A stretch of DNA of 63,786 bases, the filler included, from Hausera hauseri (lineage: Eukaryota): the NCBI GenBank assembly GCA_046269625.1. It is 12 parts of 12 records of this genome, joined end to end, with 100 filler letters (N's around TTAATTAATTAA, not from the genome) between each part and the next. Parts side by side here need not be neighbours in the genome. Positions count along the whole stretch, not along the records: positions 1 to 7,335 come from JBJURY010021785.1; 11 more parts are not named here. One strand, given 5' to 3'. This document shows positions 1 to 43,278 of this stretch, one piece after another (position 1 is the stretch's first letter; each line of letters opens with the position of its first letter). The translations under genes were made by a program, and so were the position numbers. The notes under the pieces were generated by a model. The model ran no database searches. It worked only from the letters and a program-made list of their open reading frames with translations, and was not told where the DNA came from.

Positions 1-3000
1 AAAAAACGAATAAAACAGAAATATTACTGGCCTACAATGGAACAAGATGTAAAGGATTGGGTAGACGAATGCAAAATATGCGCAACCATGAAAAATAAAG
101 GCAAACGTTATAAACCTGAGTTAAAATCATTACCAGAACCAAGCAGTCCAATGGAACTATGTGCTATGGATTTTTCTGGACCATTCCCAACAACTTCAAG
201 AGGGAATAAATATATCTTGTTATGTACGGACTATCTAACTAGCTATCCTATCTTAATTCCAACAAAGGATTTACTAGCTTCTACAGTAGCAAAGAAATTC
301 ATAAACAGAATAGTTTGCCAATTTGGCGCACCACGACATTTATTAACTGATAGAGCACCAAATTTCCGAAGTGAATTATTAAAGGAAATAACCGACATTT
401 GTCAAACCAGCAGATTATTAACAACGGCATATCATCCCCAATGCAACGGTAAAGTTGAAAGATTAAATTATACAGTGCAATGTATACTATCTGCAATGAT
501 AGACAAAACCCAAAAGGATTGGGATATTCATTTAAAAGTCGTGCAATTCGCAATAGCAACCACACCAACAAGCTCGTCAGGTTTTACACCTTTCGAATTA
601 ATGTATGGTAGAAAACCACTTCTACCTATGGATATTCAGTTATTACCAGAAAAGGAAATTCCTGAAAATCAATCGGATGAAGATATACACGAAAGTGTTG
701 TTAATAGCTTAGCAAATTATTGGAAAAGGGCTAAACAAGCCATAAAACAATACAAACAAGAGTATCAAGAATATTATAATAAAAAAGCCAATCCTCATAA
801 GTTTCAACCAGGTGATAAAGTAATGGTACATTATCCGGTAACCAAACCAGGAAAATCACTAAAATTAACTCGAACTGGCAAAGGACCGTTTGTAGTAGTC
901 AAAACTACACCTGAAAATATTTTTATCGAAAAGGGAACTGGTAAAAAGACCAGAATTGAATGTATCTCAGCCCAACGAGTAACCAAAGGACCAAAAGAAC
1001 CCAAACCAACAGAAGAACCAAAATACTCTCTGAGATCAGTTAAACAACCAGTTCTAAAATCAGCTTGTAGCTTAGAACAATTATTCTTTATAATTATGAT
1101 TTTTGGTCTAATATTATCTACTACGGCACAAACCTTAATAACAGATCCTATGATTACAAACTTAGAACTACGAGTGAAAATTAACTGGCAGAATTCAGTA
1201 GATCCAGTAGATGCATTATTCGTAGGAGAATCGAAATACAAAGAAACCACACAATTAATCTTATCATCAGAAATTAATGAAGCAATTTGGTTATCAACCA
1301 AACGTTGCTCGACTCCAGTATTAAATGAGATTTGTCTCATAGACCTCTATTTTTTAACAACCGAGATTTTACTAAAACCAAAACAAAAAATCCTGCCTAT
1401 AGCAAGACAGGTATACGTAGAGAAAATTGGCTCTACCTTCTTTTTTACACAAGAAAAAGACCATGAACCTAAATTGATAGATAAAGTCACAATAAAAAGA
1501 CCCACCTTAACTAGGGATGTCGACCTACAAATAACATATTATTTCCCTAGATTGTTTAAACATAAGTCCGGCGAAAAGGCCTTAAATTTCCATATCCACA
1601 TGACAACACCACAGTTTTTTAAGGTTGAAAAACGAATACTAATACCGTCCACAATAACACTAAAAATAGATATAACTAAACCAACCCCTATACCATACTT
1701 CAGTAAAATACCAGAAATTGATCTAACCACAACAGACTTGTACATTGAATTTAAAGCCATGCAGCTAGTAAAAAGTCCAATCACCATAACATGCATAGGA
1801 AAATATCATGTTATATACGCCACCATAAAGCAAAAAGAAAAAATGACAAGATGTAGTGATCTTCAACCCGATGAAGAATATTTAGTCATGTTTTCCCAAG
1901 ATCATGCAGCAGTAAAATATAAGACAGTCAGAACACCAACACGAAAACATTTAATTCCATTAGAAATACAACCATATACCTTAAAAGTAACCACAATAGT
2001 ACCAGATATTCATATCACTACATTAAAAACTATAATCTCATTCACAGTAATAACTGTATTCCTAATAACAATATCTATGCCATTTATGATTATCGAATTA
2101 AAAAAATGGATTACAGAAAGGAATCAAATTCAAAAACAATTAAAAACTTTACAAAATTTCGAAAATGAAAATATAGTTAATAGAAATCTGTTAATAACAA
2201 CGGCTTTATTATTTGCTCCAATTGTGGATGGAGATGTGGAGTGGAAGGCCAACCTTAAGAGTTTCGAAACATTGATATACACACAAAAACTAAAAAGAAC
2301 ATGCACACAAAAAATCAGAAATGCACACAAGCAAAAAACAACCATTCACAAATCAATAAAAATCAATCAATGCAAGGTAACCACCTACCTTGCAAACGGG
2401 CCATTAAATACGACCCGCTATCACTACTTTCTTCTTTTTAGTAAAATTATGGAATTCCTGAACACTCCAGTTTACGAGCCAGAAGGCGAAATGAATGAAA
2501 CAAATTTCAATCAAGATCCCCTAGAATCAGAAACCAACATCGACCTTGATCAAACTACTTCCGAATCAGACTCCGATAATTCAATCAAATCGGTGGTCCC
2601 TAACCCTAAACGAAGGGTTATACCACCACCAAAACAATTTAATTCTTCTTTTACCTTCCAAAATCCAACCCAAGGATTTGGATTGACCAGAGGAATATTG
2701 AGTATGCCACCAATACCAAAAGTTTCAAATAATGTCAAAATTCAATCAACAATTGAAATACGAAGAAAAGGTATTGCAATTAACGATCTTCCAGAAACCA
2801 AACGACTAAAAGTTCAATCGCAAGTATTAGATAACCTGCAAGAAAATGAGGAATATCGAATAAAAAACCGGTCCTGGGATGATCTATATGGAAAATTCAT
2901 TTTGATATATGATGCTTCAACAAATTTATATTCATCGAAATTTTACAATCAAATGGCAAATTTAATGGAAACGTCAGAAGATATTCTATATACAGATAGT

Positions 3001-4578
3001 AAATATATAGATAATAGCCTCAAAACTTCAATAATCAACGATAGAACATTCCGGATTATGAAAATAAATGAACCTCACTACAACATCAATTTAAAAGAAT
3101 TTCTACACCTACAATTACCATTTGAAAAAATCTTGATTCACGTAGCTCGTGGAAAATTACAATTCCGAGCACATTCAGATCTTTATGATAGCGTGAATCC
3201 GCACAAAACGATCATCGCATCGAAAAATTCAATAAGGATCAAAGAAACTGCATTTAAGACTGACATCTATTTCAGAGTATTACTACATCCAGTGGTACTG
3301 GGAATAGAGGTCTGTCAGGAAATAGATGATAAAATAGGTCTAAAAGATCCAATTTTTTATCAAACTCCACCAAAAGAGGTGAATAATTATCAATTAACTA
3401 ACAATACTAATTATAGATACGTGGCAGTTTCCCTATCCTATGCTTCTAACGGAGATCCACTACCAGTAGAAGTCATAATTACAGATCAAAATAGACTGAT
3501 TGTCTATCAAGCCTATATAAATCCCAGAAGAAGGATCGCAAACACTAATGAACACGTCCACGGATTATCATTGGAAATAATCCAGCAAGCAGAGGATGAA
3601 GAAGCAGTTCGTATGGAATTAATTAAGTACTTATACGGTTACAAAGTTATAAGTGCTAACACCAAGATCATCCTCAAAGCACTCAGAGTTCCAGAGAATT
3701 TTGTATTTGGAATCTTAGATCTACTATCCGTAGCAAATACAAAACAAAGATTCAAGGAAGAAAACTTGAAAATCAACTTGACGCAATTACCCAAAGTTTA
3801 CGGATATAATTATGACTTCCCAAAGACAGCAGAAAGCATCATACAAACGTTAATGGACATCCATAATAAAATAGAAAATGGTTGTACTAACGAAAAATGG
3901 GAACAGGATTGGGATCCTCCAGAAAATAATATCATAGACTATGGAAGTCTAATGGAAATACCAAAAAGATATCACGAAAACTATCCGTTTGAACAAGCAA
4001 AAGAAGAACCAATAATAAAAAGAAAATCTAAACGTTCAAACAGTGATAACATTCTACAAAAGATATCTCCGTCCCAAAATACAAATACTCAAATATTAAA
4101 AAATTCGTTTCTAAAAAAAGAAACTATGGGAGTTAAACTATCCATTTTATTGTACGGAGACACCAACAAAGCAATAAATGTTTCATTTATTCATGAGCCA
4201 AAATCGACTCAGAACCAATTTAATCAACTGAAGCTCTATCCAGATTTCGGTAAATTAATTGGAATCGTGTATAAACACCTCCAAAATAATACTCTACATC
4301 TAGCCATGATAGGGAGTCATCTAGACACTATCATGAAAATTGAAAACAATCCAATATTGGTACAACAACCAATAGCAATTCAATTGGATAGAAAACCCAT
4401 TCCCAAACCAAGGGGTGGAATAATAATAAAAATAAAAGGATCAAACAAAGAAAAGGTCCGAATGCTTTTATTCGCCACACATGACAAATTGGTTCTCGAA
4501 AACCTATACAGAATTACGAAGACGATGACGACGGATGAAGATACCATGAAGGCAACCCAATATACAATCCAGTTATGA
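1..4578 (+). CDS. pol: Ty3/Gypsy Pol C-terminus (integrase) fused in frame to an env-like membrane module and a large accessory region; 5'-truncated at the window edge
   Basis: The frame is open from base 1 (KKRIKQKYYWPTMEQDVKDWVDECKIC, integrase Zn-binding end). DDE triad AMDFSGP / LLTDRAPNF / GKVERLN; GPY/F motif GKGPFVV. No stop until 4576-4578. Hydrophobic segments at 1081-1128, 2032-2094 and 2188-2232. Confidence 0.93.
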   Translation, partial: KKRIKQKYYWPTMEQDVKDWVDECKICATMKNKGKRYKPELKSLPEPSSPMELCAMDFSGPFPTTSRGNKYILLCTDYLTSYPILIPTKDLLASTVAKKFINRIVCQFGAPRHLLTDRAPNFRSELLKEITDICQTSRLLTTAYHPQCNGKVERLNYTVQCILSAMIDKTQKDWDIHLKVVQFAIATTPTSSSGFTPFELMYGRKPLLPMDIQLLPEKEIPENQSDEDIHESVVNSLANYWKRAKQAIKQYKQEYQEYYNKKANPHKFQPGDKVMVHYPVTKPGKSLKLTRTGKGPFVVVKTTPENIFIEKGTGKKTRIECISAQRVTKGPKEPKPTEEPKYSLRSVKQPVLKSACSLEQLFFIIMIFGLILSTTAQTLITDPMITNLELRVKINWQNSVDPVDALFVGESKYKETTQLILSSEINEAIWLSTKRCSTPVLNEICLIDLYFLTTEILLKPKQKILPIARQVYVEKIGSTFFFTQEKDHEPKLIDKVTIKRPTLTRDVDLQITYYFPRLFKHKSGEKALNFHIHMTTPQFFKVEKRILIPSTITLKIDITKPTPIPYFSKIPEIDLTTTDLYIEFKAMQLVKSPITITCIGKYHVIYATIKQKEKMTRCSDLQPDEEYLVMFSQDHAAVKYKTVRTPTRKHLIPLEIQPYTLKVTTIVPDIHITTLKTIISFTVITVFLITISMPFMIIELKKWITERNQIQKQLKTLQNFENENIVNRNLLITTALLFAPIVDGDVEWKANLKSFETLIYTQKLKRTCTQKIRNAHKQKTTIHKSIKINQCKVTTYLANGPLNTTRYHYFLLFSKIMEFLNTPVYEPEGEMNETNFNQDPLESETNIDLDQTTSESDSDNSIKSVVPNPKRRVIPPPKQFNSSFTFQNPTQGFGLTRGILSMPPIPKVSNNVKIQSTIEIRRKGIAINDLPETKRLKVQSQVLDNLQENEEYRIKNRSWDDLYGKFILIYDASTNLYSSKFYNQMANLMETSEDILYTDSKYIDNSLKTSIINDRTFRIMKINEPHYNINLKEFLHLQLPFEKILIHVARGKLQFRAHSDLYDSVNPHKTIIASKNSIRIKETAFKTDIYFRVLLHPVVLGIEVCQEIDDKIGLKDPIFYQTPPKEVNNYQLTNNTNYRYVAVSLSYASNGDPLPVEVIITDQNRLIVYQAYINPRRRIANTNEHVHGLSLEIIQQAEDEEAVRMELIKYLYGYKVISANTKIILKALRVPENFVFGILDLLSVANTKQRFKEENLKINLTQLPKVYGYNYDFPKTAESIIQTLMDIHNKIENGCTNEKWEQDWDPPENNIIDYGSLMEIPKRYHENYPFEQAKEEPIIKRKSKRSNSDNILQKISPSQNTNTQILKNSFLKKETMGVKLSILLYGDTNKAINVSFIHEPKSTQNQFNQLKLYPDFGKLIGIVYKHLQNNTLHLAMIGSHLDTIMKIENNPILVQQPIAIQLDRKPIPKPRGGIIIKIKGSNKEKVRMLLFATHDKLVLENLYRITKTMTTDEDTMKATQYTIQL
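1081..2232 (+). other. env-like module within the polyprotein: signal peptide, ~300-aa ectodomain, TM helix, short tail, second signal-like segment
   Basis: LFFIIMIFGLILSTTA|QT signal-like sequence right after integrase; 21-residue TM IISFTVITVFLITISMPFMII followed by basic ELKK; then LLITTALLFAPIVDG|DV. Confidence 0.65.
3412..3873 (+). other. DEDDh (REX4/ISG20/DnaQ-like) exonuclease-fold domain with catalytic residues lost
   Basis: YVAVSLSY..VEVIITDQNRLIVYQAYINP...TNEHVHGLSLEIIQQA...AVRMELIKYLYGYKVISAN..IILKAL...INLTQLPKVYG...AESIIQTLMDIH follows the REX4-family pattern YVAIDCEM..RVSIVD..G.VLYD.YVKP....T.VSGIT...L..A.....V..LL.G.ILVGH....DL.AL...SLK.LA...H.S.EDA.ATM.LY. Confidence 0.7.
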
Positions 4579-4817
4579 CATTTGACACTTGTGATTAACA
4601 ATTTATCTTTAACATTTATGACGAACAGTTCATCTTTCCTTTGTATATTCTATTATCCTTTTTAACTTTTATCAATTACTTATTTGTATAATCCATTGTG
4701 TTATCTCACTTTTTGTATCTATCATTATTGTATACCTTTATTTTTGACTTTGTATTTACACATGTAAGAGTAATTGTCTCGTTGCAGAACTATTAATTTT
4801 CTAAGGAAAATTTCGTA

Positions 4818-4832
4818 ATAGGGGGGGGGAGA
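4818..4832 (+). promoter_or_regulatory. polypurine tract (PPT) of the Gypsy element
   Basis: ATAGGGGGGGGGAGA immediately before TGTTAGGG. Confidence 0.9.
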
Positions 4833-5616
4833 TGTTAGGGAAGAAAATAATAAGTTTAATTGAATTAAATAAAAATACGTGGTTAATTAAAACATTAATT
4901 AACAAAAAATAAAAAGAAAAATAGTTAAAACACCCCCAGAATGTTAAACTCAGAAAAAGAAGTGGCTAATGAAAGCCAAATGAAAATTTAAAAACACCCC
5001 CTGTTTTTAGACAAAATTTGACAGTTTAGGGTCTAAAACACCCCCAGAACTTAATTGTTCTGAATGAAAAATACGGTGCTAAAAAATAAAACACCTTCAG
5101 AATTTAGTAAAAACCGATTGATAACCAAACTAACCTAAAACACCCCCAGTTCAAATTTAGGGTATAAATACAGTAAGCATAACACCAGTTAGACACGAAA
5201 AAATTATAAAGCAGTTAAGAACACAATAAAATTTTGTGCTTTCAAGGATTCAAAAATTTATCCGCGAAAATTTATCCAAAGATATTTTTCTGGAATTAGG
5301 TAAAACATAACCCAATTCTTATTCATCTGCAACAGGACAATTGCCCGATAAATTGCACATTTCTTTTGTGTCATTTATTCAGTTGTGGTACCGTTCCATT
5401 TCGTTTGGAACTTTTTATTGGATCACCTGTAAATCAGATTCTTTGGAAATAAAGAAAATCCGATATTTGGGTAAATCTTAAAACAATATTTTTGTTGTTA
5501 TTTATTGTTCTTTGTTTTTAAATAAAATAAATTTATTCCCACTAACTAAATCGCGCTCGCAGCCGAACCACAAGTAGGCTACGCGAAATACACAAAAGTA
5601 AAGCTAACTTTCAACA
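4833..5616 (+). mobile_element. 3' LTR (~780 bp) of the env-like Gypsy element
   Basis: Starts TGTT after the PPT; candidate end AACA at 5613-5616 (no second LTR available to confirm it). TATAAATA at 5163-5170, AATAAA at 5225-5230, five AAAACACCCCCAG-type repeats in U3. Confidence 0.75.
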
Positions 5617-5934
5617 GTAAGAAATTAATTCTTTCTTATTTTTAATAATTGTTCATATAAGACTGGAACATTTAAAAAACTTAACAAAAAGAATAAGGAA
5701 TATCTTCCAAGTAAAAATAGTAGAAGTTAAATTAGATTACTTCTACGGAGTTTGGAAAGCAGACATTTTCGAAGAATTTCGAAAAATACATAACGAGGAA
5801 GAAGACAAACAACTTCTTCTCTTTTGCAAAACAAAATACATATTCAAAACAAAACTTAAATTTAACCCAAACTGTCCACAAATATTGGATAAGTACATAC
5901 AAGAACAGAAATCCATAAATTTAACTAAAAAGTG

Positions 5935-7335
5935 AAATTGATTGGATCAGCGAACCAACACTTATAATAATTTAAGTGAAGCCGAACGTGAAAACTGGAA
6001 TACAATAAGCATAGCAATAATAGATAGATTTTTACCGACCATGAGCCCTCAGCAGCAGTTAATAATTTTTTAAAATAGGTTCCAAAAAATGAACCAGTCA
6101 CTCAATTTGTATACTCTTTAAGACAATTAATTTATAATTATGTTAAAGCCATTAAATTGTCCAAAATGAGACAAAATGGTAATAATGATGTCGAAGAGAT
6201 CATTATTGATACTGATATTTTGTTGCCTACACAGTTCATGCGAGGTTTAGTACCAGATTTAAGATATAAGGTTTTGGCCGGAAGTCCAAATACATTTGCT
6301 GATGTTTTGAAAATGGCACAGAATTTTGAGGCTTTTAGACCTCTTAAGACGAATAAAGAAAATAATCAAGCATCTAGTGCTAATTCATTGCAAAATGCGT
6401 CACAATAAGAAAGTAGATAAAATCCGTCAAGCAGTCAAAATGAAAATCAAAACGGTAACCAAAATAGAAATCAATATGTTAATGAGTCACCTTATAAAGG
6501 AAATAGCTACCAAAATGATGGAAGAGAAGATATAAATAGAGCTGGTAAAGTTATAAAATGTTATAGATGTCAGCGTAATGGACATACCGCTAGTAATTGC
6601 AGAACTCCAAGTGATAAATTACCAATAAAAAATGAACCTACAACGAAATCTGCAGCCTTTAATGAAAAAAATATTGGACCTTCTATTGAATATTACTTTG
6701 AGGATTGGCATATGTCAAATCGAGATTCGAAAAAATTTGCAAAACTGCAGAATTCTATTTGTGGTACGGACGATGAAGAGCTAAGAGAATCTAAATTAAC
6801 AATTATTTCTGCCCATAAAGATGAAGTACGAAAATATTTTTCCGGAAATAAACTAACAGAATTGGAACAAATGGCTTTTGATGCATTGCCAGTACCAGTA
6901 GCAGCTGTTGATAAAGATGGAAACAAGATAATAAAAAATATATCTCCTGGCTATACTAATAATAAATCAAAAAGTGTTTCAGAGAATACCCCTGAAGAGA
7001 CACTAACAAAATTAAGAAAACGTAGAAAAAGATCAAAGTCACCTACAAGAAAACTTGCTGAAAACTTTATAAAAGATGATCAAGAAATTTCTGAAGAAAC
7101 TAAAGAAAAAGTTATAAACCTTATGATTAAATATTTGGATCAAATGGCACGAGGTCAAATACCTTTCGGATTAGAAAAGTTTGAATCAATTAACGCATAT
7201 TTGCAGCCTACTAGTTCATCAAAAGATAATTATAATAAAGTTATGAAAAAAGTTTACGATGTTCCAAAAGCAGAAATTCAAGAAGAACAACGAACAAAAT
7301 TGACAAAGTAATCGAAGAAGTATTAAACAAAGAAA
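5935..7335 (+). pseudogene. gag: degenerate Gypsy gag with CCHC zinc knuckle
   Basis: CYRCQRNGHTASNC at 6559-6600; capsid-like ..DRFLPT..QQQ..EPVTQFVYSLRQL; in-frame TAA at 6406 and 6418; homologous to the gag at 45500. Confidence 0.8.
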
Positions 7336-13776: not shown

Positions 13777-13956
13777 AAAATTGTCAAGCCATGTTTGAAA
13801 CCACCATTCGAGTCATGTTTGAAAGAATTGAGAAGTTGCAGTTGTACCGATGAAACTAGTCTCGGACTTCTCTGTGATTAAATATTCAATAAGGCCATCA
13901 AAAAACCGGGATTAGCTAAATTCTATTCGAGATTCTGCAGTCGAATTTTCGATTTG
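13777..13956 (+). pseudogene. MIF4G (eIF4G-like) fragment
   Basis: FESCLKEL...DETSLGLLCD*IFNKAIKKPGLAKFYSRFCSRI resembles eIF4G [30 protein letters not shown]. Confidence 0.5.
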
Positions 13957-15270
13957 AAGTGTTACAGACAACGATTGCCCTTTATGACCAAAATACTCAA
14001 AGAGCAAGGAAAATACAGTCCGGCAAAGTTGAGTACCATTGAAAAGCCATGGGAATTTAGTTTTAGTGAAGACAAGATTGATGAAATGTGGATGACAAAA
14101 CTTTGTGGTAATGTTCATCCGTTAGTCTGGGTACGATTACACAATTATCTTGTTTGGCCCGGAAAACTTATTGCACTCAATGAAGAAAGTGCTCTTGTTT
14201 TCCTTTTTGGTGACTATGATCTCAATATCGTTCCTCTCGGTTCCATGTGTATACATACCCAATCAAATCAGAAAAGGCTTACATCAAATATACTGAACTT
14301 AAACAGTCGTCGACCATCTGGAGCAGCTACTTCCCAAAACTGTGTAACAAAAGAATATCAACTTGCACTTGAACTACTCAACGTCCATTTGGAAACCATA
14401 ATGAAAAAATATCCAAATTTCTCCATTCCACCAAAGAAAATTGAATACAACGTTCAGAAAGGGGTCGAATATTATGAAAAGCTGTGTGGCAAACCGAAGT
14501 ACGACGCCGATGTTGTTGTTTTTGGATATGGTGACGATTTAATCTCAAGAAATGACAGTATTACTCAATATTCCGATAAATGCGATATGAAGTCAGATCA
14601 GGACAAATCAGATAAATATGAAGCAAACAGTGTTGCGTCATTTGCATCGTTCAATCCAAATTCAGTTGGTGTTCGAGATCAAGGAATTGCATTAACATCC
14701 ATTGACAAATTCCAAACCGGTGTACTTCAACTCCTTGATCAACTGAAAAGGGATACGATGAAAAATTCTTTTGGATCAAAAGCTTCAACATATTATCAAG
14801 ATGATGTTCCATCAAATTATTCTGATTTTACCTTTCAACCCAACCGAGAGAATGTGAAACATGTACCAACGAATAACGCTGCTGTACAGTTTTCCACTAA
14901 AGAGTTTCAAAAGGAAGAAGATCTCAGAAAATATATCACTTATCTTGAACGTTGCTTAGCTGCGTCAGATATTGAAATTCGACGTCAGGAAATACTATCA
15001 ACTATACGGCATGAAGAATACATATTAGAGTTTACAAAACAGCAGAAAGAATTAAGGAAGATTTATGAAACAGATATATTATATATTATTAAAAGTCTTC
15101 GATCAGAGGTTGAAGAGAAATCTTTGCGAACTATCCGAAAATTGAAAGCGAACGAATAGTGTGCATACTGTGGGAAATTGGCTCGATTTTATTGCTGTTG
15201 GAACACATGTTATTGTAATCACGAATGCAAGTCCAAACATTGGGATACACACAAATCAGTTTGTATTCAA
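13954..15270 (+). pseudogene. ZMYND8/ZMYND11-like PWWP, coiled-coil and MYND segment; intronless, with a nonsense codon
   Basis: PWWP WMTKLC..HPLVWVRLHNYLVWPGKL...VFLFGDYD (14089-14250). MYND CAYCGKLARFYCCWNTCYCNHECKSKHWDTHKSVC (15160-15264). The conserved Trp before the first Cys is TAG (15157-15159). Confidence 0.85.
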
Positions 15271-15507
15271 GTCAACAAACAATCCACCAATCGAACTAAC
15301 ATTTCCAGTACGCCAATTGTTCAAAATTCTCCCATTGTTCAAAATTTCTCGATTGTTCAAAATCCGCCAAATGTCATCCAACATCTTCTTTCTCGAGGAA
15401 CAGATTCGGCTAACATAAACATGGCAATCAATGGAGCGAATGTCGTCGATTACATTCTCAATTATTCAAGCGCGGCTATGGAACAAAAACCTCAATCGTT
15501 CAGTCCA

Positions 15508-15600
15508 CGAAATACTAGCACAATAAGTCAAGAACAAGAAAAACATCTACGGGAATTCTTTGTAAATAATCCATATTCCACTAAATCTCATCAAGAGTGG
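15508..15600 (+). pseudogene. homeodomain helix 1-2 fragment
   Basis: RNTSTISQEQEKHLREFFVNNPYSTKSHQEW; recognition helix 3 is absent. Confidence 0.55.
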
Positions 15601-16260
15601 GTTGCTGCAAATAATGTTGTTTGTATTAACAAAGATCAGAACATATTAGATAGTCGGAAGAAAATCAAAGTAGCCATGAACGATGTCTGTCTACAAAAGC
15701 TGATTTCTAAGCAACGCGAAGCTATTTACGAGAACAATTTGCTCTTTCTCTATTACAGTAATCAAGGGGATGCTGTTGAAAACATTGCTTCGGAGTTGTT
15801 CGTCCAGAGTTCGGATTGTACCCGAGCGGTATTAACGAAGTCAGCCCAATTGTTCAAAGAAAAGCAGACATCGCAAATTTCTTGAGGAGTATCTTGATTC
15901 AATCGAAAAGAACTCCATGGGCGATAAAAGTCTCATTAAGGTCCATTTAAGTCTAGAACAATTGTATTTGACACAAGGCAGTGTATCGAGATGAACTGTG
16001 ATTCTGTGCGCATTGCCGATTGAATTCCGATACCGGTTTGGTATTTTGGCAGCCAGAGCTAGTTTCTATCTCATGTTGGAAGATAAACAGTCGGTTGTTG
16101 ACACCTTTGATACGTCTCTCGAATGGTACCGATCACAAATCGGGGTTTTGAAACGTAAAGAAAAGGACATTAGTCCTGAACGATATCAATCATTGCTGCA
16201 AATTGCAGCTGCATTCTGTCTCCGTTATCGTATGCCAGAACAGGCAGCGACACCACTTAC
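15601..16260 (+). pseudogene. SRP72: SRP72 internal fragment
   Basis: ANNVVCINKDQNILDSRKKIK...KLISKQREAI...AQLFKEKQ and, after a frameshift, LYLTQG...EDKQSVVDTFDTSLEWY...SLLQIAAAFCLRY match the SRP72 TPR region. Confidence 0.85.
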
Positions 16261-39420: not shown

Positions 39421-42400
39421 TTTTTATACTACTCATGTTGTAACTATAAAACTAACAATAACTACTCCAATGATAAACGCTCCAGTTTCTCTAAAAGTAA
39501 CCGCCCTAAGTCACCAATCCAAAAAAATCTTATTTCGCCGCCAGCACTCACGGCGGAGTCTGGCAAAGGCAACTGCTCAAATACTACCTGCCGACACGCT
39601 GCTTTTGCAGTCTTTACACTAAAGGCTTCGATAACCACACCAACAACTCAATCCATAGACTTCCTTATCGAAACTGGCGCTGCGGTTTCTTTGCTAAGAC
39701 TCACTTTTCCTGTACAAAATTCACAATTTAAAGCTAAATCGTTATTTACAGCTTCAGGACAACCGCTTGACATTTCAGGTACATCTACATTGTCGCTCAC
39801 TTTACCAAAATTTTATTCCAAGTTTCATTGGACGTTTACAGTTGCTAACGTCCGCACAGCAATCCTAGGTTCAGATTTCTTATCGCACTATAATCTTTTA
39901 GTTGATTGCAAACAGCAATGTCTGAAACGTAACACTACTGGATATCTTACAGAGCAAATAAATGGTATATCCGCTAAGGCAGAAACGATCTATCTGCGGA
40001 AGCCTATACTTAAAAATCCTGCAAATAATCCATATTTCTTCAACAAGCATTCTTCATTTCGTAAATTCTTTAATGATAACGTCGATATTCAGTCGAGATT
40101 TGGTTTTGACAACTACTATTGTGTTGGTTCAGTACATTCATTAGACAAAATTACCTCTTCCAACACTATTTTTAATAGTACTGTTTTACACCTAATTACT
40201 CTTGATTTAAATAACTCGCAAACTACACTCGTCAGAGCACACATTTACTCAACACCACCACCTTCACCAAATCTTTCGCAATTGTCTGCAAGTCTACGGC
40301 AATACATACTTCATGCCCCCGCTTATTCCAAAAGGACCGAACCTCCACACCTACGGACAGGACTTTTCATCACATCATAACGCATTATCAAAGACCTATT
40401 TGTCAAAAAGTACGTCCATTGTCACCTCGGCGTAGACAAGCTGTTGAAGCGGAATTTCTAGATCTTGAACGCTCCGGCATTATACGCAGATCTAAATCAC
40501 CGTGATCTTCACCTTTACACGTTGTCCAAAAAAGGATGGATCTTTCCGACCATGCGGTGATTACCGTCAAATAAACACTTTCACTGTTATGGACGCATAT
40601 CCGTTAACACTAATTAAGGATATCCTGCACCGGCTCAATTCCACTACAGTATATTCAACCATAGACTTAGCCAAAACATAACAACAAATTCCTGTAGCAC
40701 CTGAGGACATCGAGAAAACTGCCGTTACGTCACCTTTCGGTCTGTACAAATACATTTATATGCCTTTTGGTTTAAGCAACGCTGCACAGACTTTCCAACG
40801 TCATATCGATTCCATACTCTCGGATTTAACTTTCGCGCACCCATATATCGACGATATTTTGATTACTTCGTCTTCAACCAAACAGCATGAGGAACATCTT
40901 CGTTCTATTTTTCAACGGCTTAACCACCATAATTTACAAATCAATTTTACGAAGTGTCACTTCTTCCAAAAGCGTATTAACTTTCTCGGAAACATCATTT
41001 CAGCAAATGGTCATTCTCCTCAGTCCGAAGGTGTTTAAGCCCTCAAATGTGTACAACAACACCAAACAACATCAGAAATGAGGAGCTTTTTGGGAACCTT
41101 GCACTTCATTCACAAATACGTGCCGTACTGCTCTGAACTTACCGCACTATTCGCCCACTTAAGCGGTGGAAAAAAACATCAGCCAATCTAGTGGACACCT
41201 GGCCTGGTCGCGAAGTTTGACAAGCTTCGTGAAGGAATTAAGACCGTATACATTCTCGATTTCCCTAAGCATGACGCGAAACTTATTTTTATCTCAGACG
41301 CTTCAACCACTGCGGTAGGTGCTGTGCTTCATCAAATATACAAAGGAGAAAATTAACCACAAGAATTTTTCTCTCGTAAGCTGGTATCCCCTGAAACTCG
41401 ATATTCAAAGTTCGATCGAGAATATTGGTCATCGTACTCGTTTTGAAGCACTTCTCCAACCAACTTCTATCTCGCCGTTTTACCATACAGACCGATCACA
41501 AGCCCTTGCTAAACATCATGACTATGAAACATCCTTCCACACACCAAGAACGACAAATATCATATTTGTCGGCATTCAACTTCGACATAAGACATATTAA
41601 CGACGTCAATAATTTGGTTACCGACTTCCTATCAAGGACGGTTGGTTCGATTAATTTTTTAGCCATCTTCACTCAAGCACAACTCCAACAGAACCATCCA
41701 CCTCAAGACATGCTTAAATCCTTTGACGGCGTGGCTTTAGACACTTCCAAACCGGGTCATTCTATAATGATTCTCACACTATCTTTACAACGGCAAGGGT
41801 TTAACAGTGTACATTCACTGCACCATCCTGGAGCTAAGGCGACTTTTCGCTTACACCATCGGCAAGTAATATGGCCGACTATGCGTTCTGATGTGCAAGC
41901 GTGGGTTAATAAGTGCGTGGCTTGCCAGAAATTTAAAATCACCAAACATTTGAAGCCACCATTATATCATTTCCCTTGCACATCACGTTTCGAGTCTGTT
42001 CATGTCGATCTCGTTGGCCTTTTTCCTCCTGACAACTGTTATCAGTTCATTTTGACCATAATGCATCGTTCGTCACGTTGGCCAGAAGCCGTCCCACTAC
42101 GGAGCACCAATACCGACAAGATAGCCGATGTTTTTATACGCACGTGGATCAGCAGATTTGGATCCCTTAGATTCATTATTACAGACCAAGGTACTCAGTT
42201 TGAGTCTAATTTGTTTAAATCTCTCGTTAACCCATTAGGAATTAGCTATATCCACACATCACCGTATCACCATCAATCGAATGGTCTCCTAGAGAGATTC
42301 CACAGAACACTAAAAACGTCATTGAGAATCCTAGCAGAATCAAATAGCAGTGGGACTACTATTTTTCCGCTAGTTCTTCTGGGTTGGCGTAACACCCCTT

Positions 42401-43278
42401 CTACTTTTACAGGTTGTTCACCTACAGAAGCCCTTTTCAGAACACCTGTACGTTCATTGTTTGAACTAACGGCCTTGGAAGATACGCCGACAGACGAAGC
42501 TATCCGATCAGCACAAGACCATTTTGTTGCCGTAAGCAAAGATTCCTTCTGTAGGTTCTTGAATAACAATAAAGCATACTTACCGGGGGATCTATATTCG
42601 TCAAAATTCTTCTGGTTGAGAAACCAGACACCGTGCGGTTTCCAACCACAGTATTTGCGACCTTCCAAACTCGTTCACTTGAACTCCCATAATGCCATTA
42701 TTTTTAAAGACAGCAAGGAATTAGCAGTGCACATCAACAACGTAAATCCCGCTTTTTTCGTCGATGATATACCTCAAATTGAACCTTCTACACCTTTTCT
42801 GACGCCACCGCCTTTTCCTATTTCTATTCCTTCACACTCTACACCTATCCCGTTACTACAACCTACTCCTAAAACCTCTTCCACTAATCTCACCACTTTT
42901 CTTCTAGTTTCTCCTACATTTTTCCCTCCAGCTCATTCCTCGTTTCTGAACGATATACCACCTTCTACGACGACGTCCGACATAATTTTATCTCCATCAA
43001 CTTGTCAATCAGATTCAACGACACTAAAAAATTCAAATCGGTCACCTTCAGTACCTACAGTAGATTGCTAAATACTGATGGAATACGTCTTTTACATGCG
43101 AAGACCACATAGTGAGTCCACACTGTTCCGTTCTACGTTCGTTTAGTATTTCCTTTTATCTTCACAGTTCACACCTTGCCACGGGGGGTAATGTAGTGCC
43201 TATTAAAGTTTCTAGGTTTGGGAAGTGGATTAAATAAATAAACAATACCACCACCACATTCGATTCTGTTGACAAAAT
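39421..43278 (+). mobile_element. CsRn1-like Gypsy pro-RT-RNaseH-IN with PPT and start of 3' LTR, degenerate
   Basis: FLIETGA, YIDD, integrase VHVDLVG/TDQGTQFES/NGLLERFHR; PPT ACGGGGGGTAA at 43181, then TGTAG at 43192. Confidence 0.92.

Follow-up and report, generated by a model that had tools for sequence, protein, structure and literature searches.

A putative catalytically dead REX4/ISG20-like exonuclease domain carried by an LTR retroelement of Hausera hauseri

Background

We analysed a 63,786-nucleotide stretch of DNA (hereafter, the window) from Hausera hauseri [NCBI GenBank assembly: GCA_046269625.1], in which positions 3412..3873, inside a Ty3/gypsy-type long terminal repeat (LTR) retroelement, encode a domain that in all probability descends from DEDDh exonucleases of the REX4/ISG20 kind and is very unlikely to have kept their catalysis. 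Our working model, to which we give a probability of roughly 0.45, is that the domain serves for non-catalytic binding within an accessory protein, separately expressed and probably nuclear, which would escort or shield the RNA of the element itself, by analogy with an accessory protein of a nematode element (see below). DEDDh nucleases (ISG20, TREX1, and ERI-1-type enzymes) act on viral and retroelement nucleic acids and on small RNAs. A sequence-only reading of the same DNA had described the domain as a dead DEDDh exonuclease and had suggested RNA binding as one of its possible roles. Note that the window is made up of 12 pieces with 11 spacers between them (each N44, 12 bases, and N44), and that pieces across a spacer are not genomic neighbours; the domain sits in piece 1 (1-7335) [Genbank: JBJURY010021785.1]. 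All features of piece 1 described below are on the + strand.

Kinship of the domain with DEDDh exonucleases

The domain (3412..3873) corresponds to residues 1138-1291 of a 1525-codon frame. Its frame is open on the + strand over 154 amino acids (aa), the other two + frames have 12 stops each, and the − strand frame has stops as well. With the ESM Atlas, the top match was 'RNA exonuclease 4-like' (0.93, 179 of 256 features), ISG20 was found at 0.90, and all ten of the best family-bearing matches belonged to one family or clan. The NCBIfam dnaQ profile (TIGR01406) matched with an E value of 8.6e-5 (22 bits, far under the cut-off of 222.7), and a PHROGs family annotated as an exonuclease subunit of polymerase matched at E 0.012; the best sequence match in PDB was a PolC exonuclease at E 1 only. 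A phmmer search of 1.84 billion proteins gave three matches at E<=0.001, namely P0004 (4.5e-5), P0005 (7.1e-4), and P0003, the last of which was rejected as a homolog because it is a repeat artefact (bacterial Ig-like repeats). P0005, a REX4-type protein of host type, is 733 aa long and has four REX4/ISG20-like domains in tandem. Only the second of them has the intact DEDDh motif, and this second domain matches ISG20L2 (E 4e-30); the window domain is identical to this intact domain at 29 of 151 positions (about 19%). The likeness to REX4, ISG20, and ISG20L2 (PF00929; PMC10899777), which are also the best matches of the domain in the Atlas, phmmer, and Foldseek searches, lies in how the residues are spaced and in the pattern of hydrophobic positions, and it extends from strand 1 through the final helix. 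Since the Atlas, NCBIfam dnaQ, PHROGs, and the REX4-type protein found with phmmer agree on one family, we consider the DEDDh ancestry of 3412-3873, as put forward in the sequence-only reading, to be highly probable from these comparisons.

With a profile of the four P0005 domains, the window peptide scored 24.9 bits, against a maximum of 11.0 for the 952 scored of 1000 shuffles, although this score is inflated, P0005 having been picked for its match. Alignment of both dead domains (those of the window and P0004) to the four P0005 domains with hhalign gave a probability of 64-72% and an E value of 9e-6 over 155 columns. No Pfam family, RNase_T (PF00929) included, matched the 154-aa peptide at E<=1. 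In a Foldseek search, the top six rows were all DEDDh nucleases, ISG20 first (E 8e-3), on a low-confidence model the alignment of which contained a REX4 row. The two AlphaFold models of the domain had mean pLDDT (predicted local distance difference test) values of 40 and 44.5, too poor for confirmation of the fold; in the latter, which was used for Foldseek, the order of elements (three strands followed by two helices, then a short strand and finally a long helix) fits.

Some results limit this evidence: the same Foldseek search gave a TM-score of 0.29 and a root-mean-square deviation of about 14.6, with no match at E<=0.001, and P0004 reached only 3.5 bits on the P0005-domain profile, inside the shuffle range (maximum 8.9). 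Searches with VIA-align returned, for both models, helical matches only, with no Z>=8 and no DEDDh protein in the top 50, which is uninformative at that model quality. The missing RNase_T match, the VIA-align outcome, and the weakness of the single matches speak for a chance resemblance, or for an alpha/beta pattern shared with another fold; we take this to be very improbable, given that the four kinds of search above agree and that the predicted strand and helix order fits.

Loss of catalytic and pocket residues

The catalytic motifs were located with the intact domain 2 of P0005 as the reference, in two registers (hhalign and MAFFT). The ExoI D-x-E position (3430..3438) reads Ser-Leu-Ser, and the ExoII region (3655..3672) has no acidic residue, its Asp being replaced by Ile (at 3667 or 3670, depending on the register); both replacements are those given in the sequence-only reading. 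The ExoIII region (3799..3828) lacks the His-x4-Asp motif. The His is Tyr in both registers, as had been claimed, but the last Asp, which had also been described as absent, is Thr (3826) in the hhalign register, whereas under MAFFT it falls on a true Asp (3814). Thus, of the five catalytic residues, one at most may remain in the aligned sequence. Because at least four of the five are lost, exonuclease catalysis by 3412-3873 is very unlikely, which bears out the description of the domain as dead, and, judged by its motifs, the domain does not belong among the DEDDh enzymes.

In ISG20L2, catalysis uses four acids, two metals, and a His, and the 3' end of the RNA is held by Arg226 and His262, with Met186 binding by its main chain (PMC10899777). 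In an ungapped register, the equivalents of Arg226 and His262 are Asn and Ala in the window domain and Ile and Pro in P0004; the change of Met186 to Tyr says little, the binding by Met186 being through the main chain. The charge of the domain is about neutral (18 Lys and Arg, 17 Asp and Glu). Canonical binding of an RNA end is therefore not supported, both because the Arg226 and His262 equivalents are replaced in the two dead domains and because the net charge is near zero, and the RNA binding suggested earlier is so far not supported for the usual pocket. The replacement of the pocket side chains also weakens the idea of a substrate trap. Compared with REX4, ISG20, and ISG20L2, the window domain thus lacks the catalytic acids and His, has the 3'-nucleotide pocket replaced, and lies under Pfam detection.

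A second dead domain and the age of the loss

P0004, an unannotated, free-standing protein of 365 aa known from one Logan contig of 1964 bases, matches the middle of the 709-aa region described below. The whole domain is aligned, with 40 of 163 columns identical (25%; z 19 against shuffles), and P0004 also lacks the ExoI and ExoII acids (Q-Q-A at ExoI, Ile at ExoII), the ExoIII His being kept in one register. Of the 40 shared residues, 28 differ from the intact REX4 domain; by these residues the window domain and P0004 are a dead subfamily of their own. We consider it probable that the loss is old and that the domain has been retained, rather than that it is freshly decaying, on the grounds that a homolog with 25% identity has the same losses and that the 709-codon frame around the domain is open and has coding bias. 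By composition, the chance of 709 stop-free codons is about 4e-24, and the codon bias equals that of the rest of the frame.

The domain is lineage-restricted: the exonuclease fold was found in none of the 120 integrase-bearing proteins listed of 171 homologs of the frame (best E 0.27) and in none of 8 metagenome integrase loci. A word-indexed homolog search with the domain (proteins of 271-2000 aa) yielded none among 443 candidates, a search with the alignment of the window domain and P0004 (proteins of 200-643 aa) recovered only P0004 among 3768 candidates, and locus scans for the domain in viral_contigs and metagenome_contigs gave nothing.

The element

A single open frame (1..4578; 1525 codons), the 5' end of which is cut by the contig edge, holds in order an integrase, a predicted membrane protein, a spacer, and the accessory region with the domain; it has no stops, while the long blocks contain 24-59 when read in their other frames. 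The first 330 residues (1..990) are a Ty3/gypsy-type integrase at the end of pol with an H2C2 end, a D57-D117-E153 triad, and a GPF motif (GPY/F module), which matches Pfam Integrase_H2C2 (E 1e-8) and rve (E 4e-6, below the curated cut-off). The 120 listed homologs are 28-43% identical. In an integrase tree (121 rows, reconstructed by a quick method), the window integrase was placed on a long branch at an open fork, so that no clade was assigned. Integrase scans found 8 loci in metagenome contigs and none in viral and prokaryote contigs.

Downstream of the frame, a polypurine tract (4820..4832), read from the sequence, is followed directly by a likely LTR (4833..5656) that starts with TG and has a TATA-like sequence at 5163 and AATAAA at 5521; its 3' end is at 5616 or 5656. 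A candidate splice donor, GTAAG, is found near the LTR end at 5617. After the LTR, an interrupted gag (6079..7311) with split frames matches Pfam Ty3_capsid weakly (E 0.019) and zf-CCHC (E 2.7e-4). The tract with the TG-starting LTR (4820-4834) and the gag with its CCHC knuckle, together with the integrase features, are those of Ty3/gypsy elements, and the claim that an LTR retroelement carries the domain is supported by the integrase upstream and by the tract and LTR downstream. Piece 1 (1-7335) holds one LTR, with no second LTR, reverse transcriptase, or long direct repeat in it; no clear tRNA primer site was seen, and there is no tRNA gene in the window. The order of pol, extra genes, tract, LTR, and gag means either a tandem copy or an assembly running through the LTR, and the domain is inside the element in both cases. 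In the sequencing run X1, which may be the source sample, 6491 contigs aligned to piece 1 (5034 of them less than 95% alike), as would be the case for a large family with many copies; one X1 contig also starts at 4833. Two sequencing runs had matching contigs, with no RNA run among those listed. As a separate observation, four repeats of about 20 nucleotides (TAAAACACCCCCAG core) in the likely U3 of the LTR (4926-5155) could be enhancer sites.

The accessory protein

The accessory region follows a spacer (2221..2448) that has no codon-position bias (chi-square 3.6, against 12-53 in 9 other blocks). Near the end of the spacer, a candidate splice acceptor (2424..2441) with a pyrimidine tract (14 of 15 pyrimidines) and TAG is the best YAG site in 1..4830 and lies 7 nucleotides before the ATG at 2449. 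The frame from this ATG (2449..4578) would encode a likely separate accessory protein of 709 aa with an acidic and basic N-terminal stretch, an unknown domain (2830..3411), the dead exonuclease domain, a linker, and an unknown C-terminal domain (4126..4575; about 150 aa, no family match), in this order. The domain at 2830..3411 is weakly common to P0004 (local alignment z 3.3, equalled in 5 of 500 shuffles; E 0.08 with phmmer among 125 proteins). The position of the acceptor, the spacer without codon bias, and the fact that P0004 begins and ends as a protein of its own together suggest that the predicted 709-aa protein is made separately from ATG 2449, and its five basic clusters make a nuclear location likely as a prediction.

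Possible roles of the domain

The working model of a non-catalytic adaptor would run as follows. An ancestor of the element would have captured a REX4-type domain from a host, as the kinship suggests; the metal-binding acids would have been lost long ago with the fold pattern kept, a combination seen in two proteins that are only 25% identical; and the 709-aa protein would be made from RNA spliced at the predicted acceptor at 2441. Even if an element splices, its unspliced genomic RNA has to be exported and protected, and here the accessory protein may serve as the adaptor, the dead domain offering its surface for protein contacts or for non-canonical RNA contacts. The integrase triad is present, and we counted this toward maintenance. 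The precedent is CERV of the Caenorhabditis elegans element Cer1, which is made from spliced Cer1 mRNA, is needed for export of the genomic RNA, and has a likely enzyme-dead G-like domain (PMC10309623). Both are large, multi-domain accessory proteins of LTR elements, spliced (by prediction here), with a likely enzyme-dead captured domain.

The folds of the two proteins differ, the function of CERV was shown by experiment, and the comparison is one of analogy. Several points weigh against the adaptor model. The acceptor score is modest, a score of 14 having been reached anywhere in 9 of 500 codon shuffles, and basic clusters are common in such a lysine-rich sequence. P0004 is the sole dead homolog found, and it may or may not be carried by an element. 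Dead REX4 domains also occur in the host-type P0005, where three of the four domains are without the catalytic residues, so that the domain may have been dead already at capture. This last point favours a passenger domain, which would be a captured host domain now decaying or serving as a folded spacer, P0004 being a host gene or an independent remnant. The absence of the domain from the 120 listed relatives and the 8 loci, and the near-neutral variation in sequenced env- and GDSL-type third open reading frames (ORF3s) reported by Rodriguez et al. (PMC5408684), point in the same direction. However, unless selection is invoked, it is difficult to account for 709 open codons that show coding bias and for the residues that the domain and P0004, at 75% divergence, have in common where the intact REX4 domain differs, and we regard a passenger as unlikely. 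The spacer is also stop-free in frame, which has a probability of about 0.005 by chance and fits a continuous polyprotein in which all 1525 codons are read through as pol, membrane protein, and a tail that would be freed by proteolysis and act in particle assembly or at membranes instead of as a nuclear factor made by splicing. In-frame pol-env proteins do occur among the relatives (e.g., P0022, with a rhabdovirus glycoprotein match), and a second hydrophobic stretch (residues 730-742) could be another signal. Such a tail seems still less likely than a passenger, given the missing codon bias of the spacer, the best acceptor lying just before an ATG, and the free-standing P0004.

The decoy or suppressor role is also raised in the sequence-only reading. 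Here the dead domain would imitate a DEDDh nuclease of the host, vie with it for partners or substrates, and weaken the small-RNA or surveillance pathways directed against the element. Such a mimic would be expected to take the form of a dead fold that is maintained, and the nearest kin of the domain are host REX4/ISG20-type enzymes; however, an identity of about 19% to one intact REX4 domain is scant for mimicry (the comparison did not include the enzyme of the host itself), and the replaced Arg226 and His262 equivalents make trapping of substrates unlikely. The exonuclease of the arenavirus nucleoprotein, which appeared among the Atlas matches at 0.89 (a lead only), is an active enzyme, and this was counted against it as a precedent for a dead decoy. 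Its DEDDh domain does suppress innate immunity (PMC7968707), and element-borne helicases showed weak silencing suppression (PMC6338049). We hold the decoy possible but doubtful; it can overlap with the adaptor model.

Comparison with known systems

A DnaQ-like exonuclease is among the well-known accessory domains of LTR elements (PMC6338049), and only rotifer cases are mentioned in the available portions of two further reviews (PMC6431247 and PMC5718144). These are the bdelloid rotifer LTR elements Juno and Vesta, whose ORF3 encodes an intact RNase D-like DEDDy exonuclease (PMC5408684). The window element resembles them as an LTR retrotransposon with an extra gene of the DEDD 3'-5' exonuclease fold downstream of pol. 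However, the rotifer ORF3 is of the DEDDy type, has the intact DEED residues, and replaces env, whereas the window domain is on the DEDDh/REX4 side, is predicted to be dead, comes after a predicted membrane protein, and has an unknown domain on either side. The window domain is not in the rotifer DEDDy ORF3 group, from which it is set apart by the published description of those elements, and its capture was likely independent of theirs. Maelstrom and EXD1 are dead DEDD derivatives too (PMC5408684, PMC7968707), with the DEDD fold but not its active site, and act as RNA-binding factors; they are host factors of the PIWI-interacting RNA pathway that repress transposons, whereas the window domain is carried by an element.

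Full-text literature searches, the scope of which did not extend to most subscription papers, Repbase annotations, and supplements (including the tables of PMC13524379), turned up no LTR element with a dead domain of the REX4/ISG20 type. They likewise gave no statement of an exonuclease-like gene in nematode Cer elements, and a dominant-negative effect of dead ISG20 was not found in a review consulted for it. LTR elements with an extra DEDD exonuclease have thus already been published, and the predicted dead REX4-type version is the new part. Troyka elements were rejected as carriers of such a domain: the word 'exonuclease' occurs 0 times in PMC12440569.

The predicted membrane protein

Between the integrase and the accessory region, 1072-2103 is in frame with the integrase and is predicted to encode a type I membrane protein, perhaps a receptor-like one or an env of a new kind. 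It consists of a hydrophobic stretch found by a Kyte-Doolittle scan (1072..1134, with an ATG at 1096) that is likely an internal signal peptide, a predicted ectodomain (1135..2022; about 296 aa, 4 Cys, and no N-glycosylation site) that is env-like by position only, and a predicted transmembrane helix (2023..2103). The ectodomain had no match in Pfam, NCBIfam, or PHROGs, and its best Atlas match (0.81) was to an unnamed cluster; residues 620-629 resemble, by eye, what we take to be a fibronectin type III motif, which has no Pfam match. Ectodomain-like sequence was found in none of the 120 listed integrase-bearing relatives of 171 (best E 0.54). Metazoan envelope-carrying Ty3/gypsy elements (PMC13524379) likewise have a signal-ectodomain-transmembrane protein downstream of the integrase, but the window ectodomain belongs to no Pfam family, and no envelope of the F or gB type was detected. 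The word 'exonuclease' is absent from the text of PMC13524379.

Other features

Another captured accessory domain was observed at L001:3241-5157, where a gypsy pol frame has a C-terminal extension with a Macro domain (E 3e-32). Elsewhere in the window, a second gypsy-type family is represented by 3 decayed copies (23040-26037, 39445-42671, and 55807-59619; 64-78% alike) with matches to a reverse transcriptase, an RNase H, and an integrase. Two features on different pieces are possibly Polinton-like: a fragment of DNA polymerase B (27207-27908, − strand; DNA_pol_B_2, E 0.003) and a non-gypsy-like rve integrase (60422-61210, − strand). A ZMYND8/11-type gene (13882-15885) with a weak PWWP match and a MYND zinc finger has an in-frame TAG (15157-15159) just before MYND, and it is either a pseudogene or contains an error. 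At 49661-52012, the splicing factor SF3B1 is uninterrupted over 783 codons, scoring 1449 bits against the best SF3B1 chains in PDB and 910 against yeast HSH155, which marks the host as eukaryotic and probably an animal.

Significance

For very few LTR elements is it known how their unspliced RNA gets past the quality control and the small-RNA silencing of the host, and a captured nuclease fold that is kept although its active site is gone offers a concrete candidate for a factor of this kind, one that can be put to the test. If the domain is a passenger, it would be one more captured domain. Otherwise, it would show that LTR elements have captured DEDD proteins more than once, with REX4/ISG20 as the second host family, and that selection can keep a fold and not its chemistry. 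In a bolder version, which we offer as speculation and think rather unlikely, a new gypsy lineage disarmed a REX4/ISG20 nuclease captured from its host and retained it over deep divergence; it would form the central part of an accessory protein, made by splicing, that works against the RNA surveillance or small-RNA silencing of the host. If this were true, an invertebrate element would have a gene set like that of a complex retrovirus, which would include a membrane protein outside the known fusogen families.

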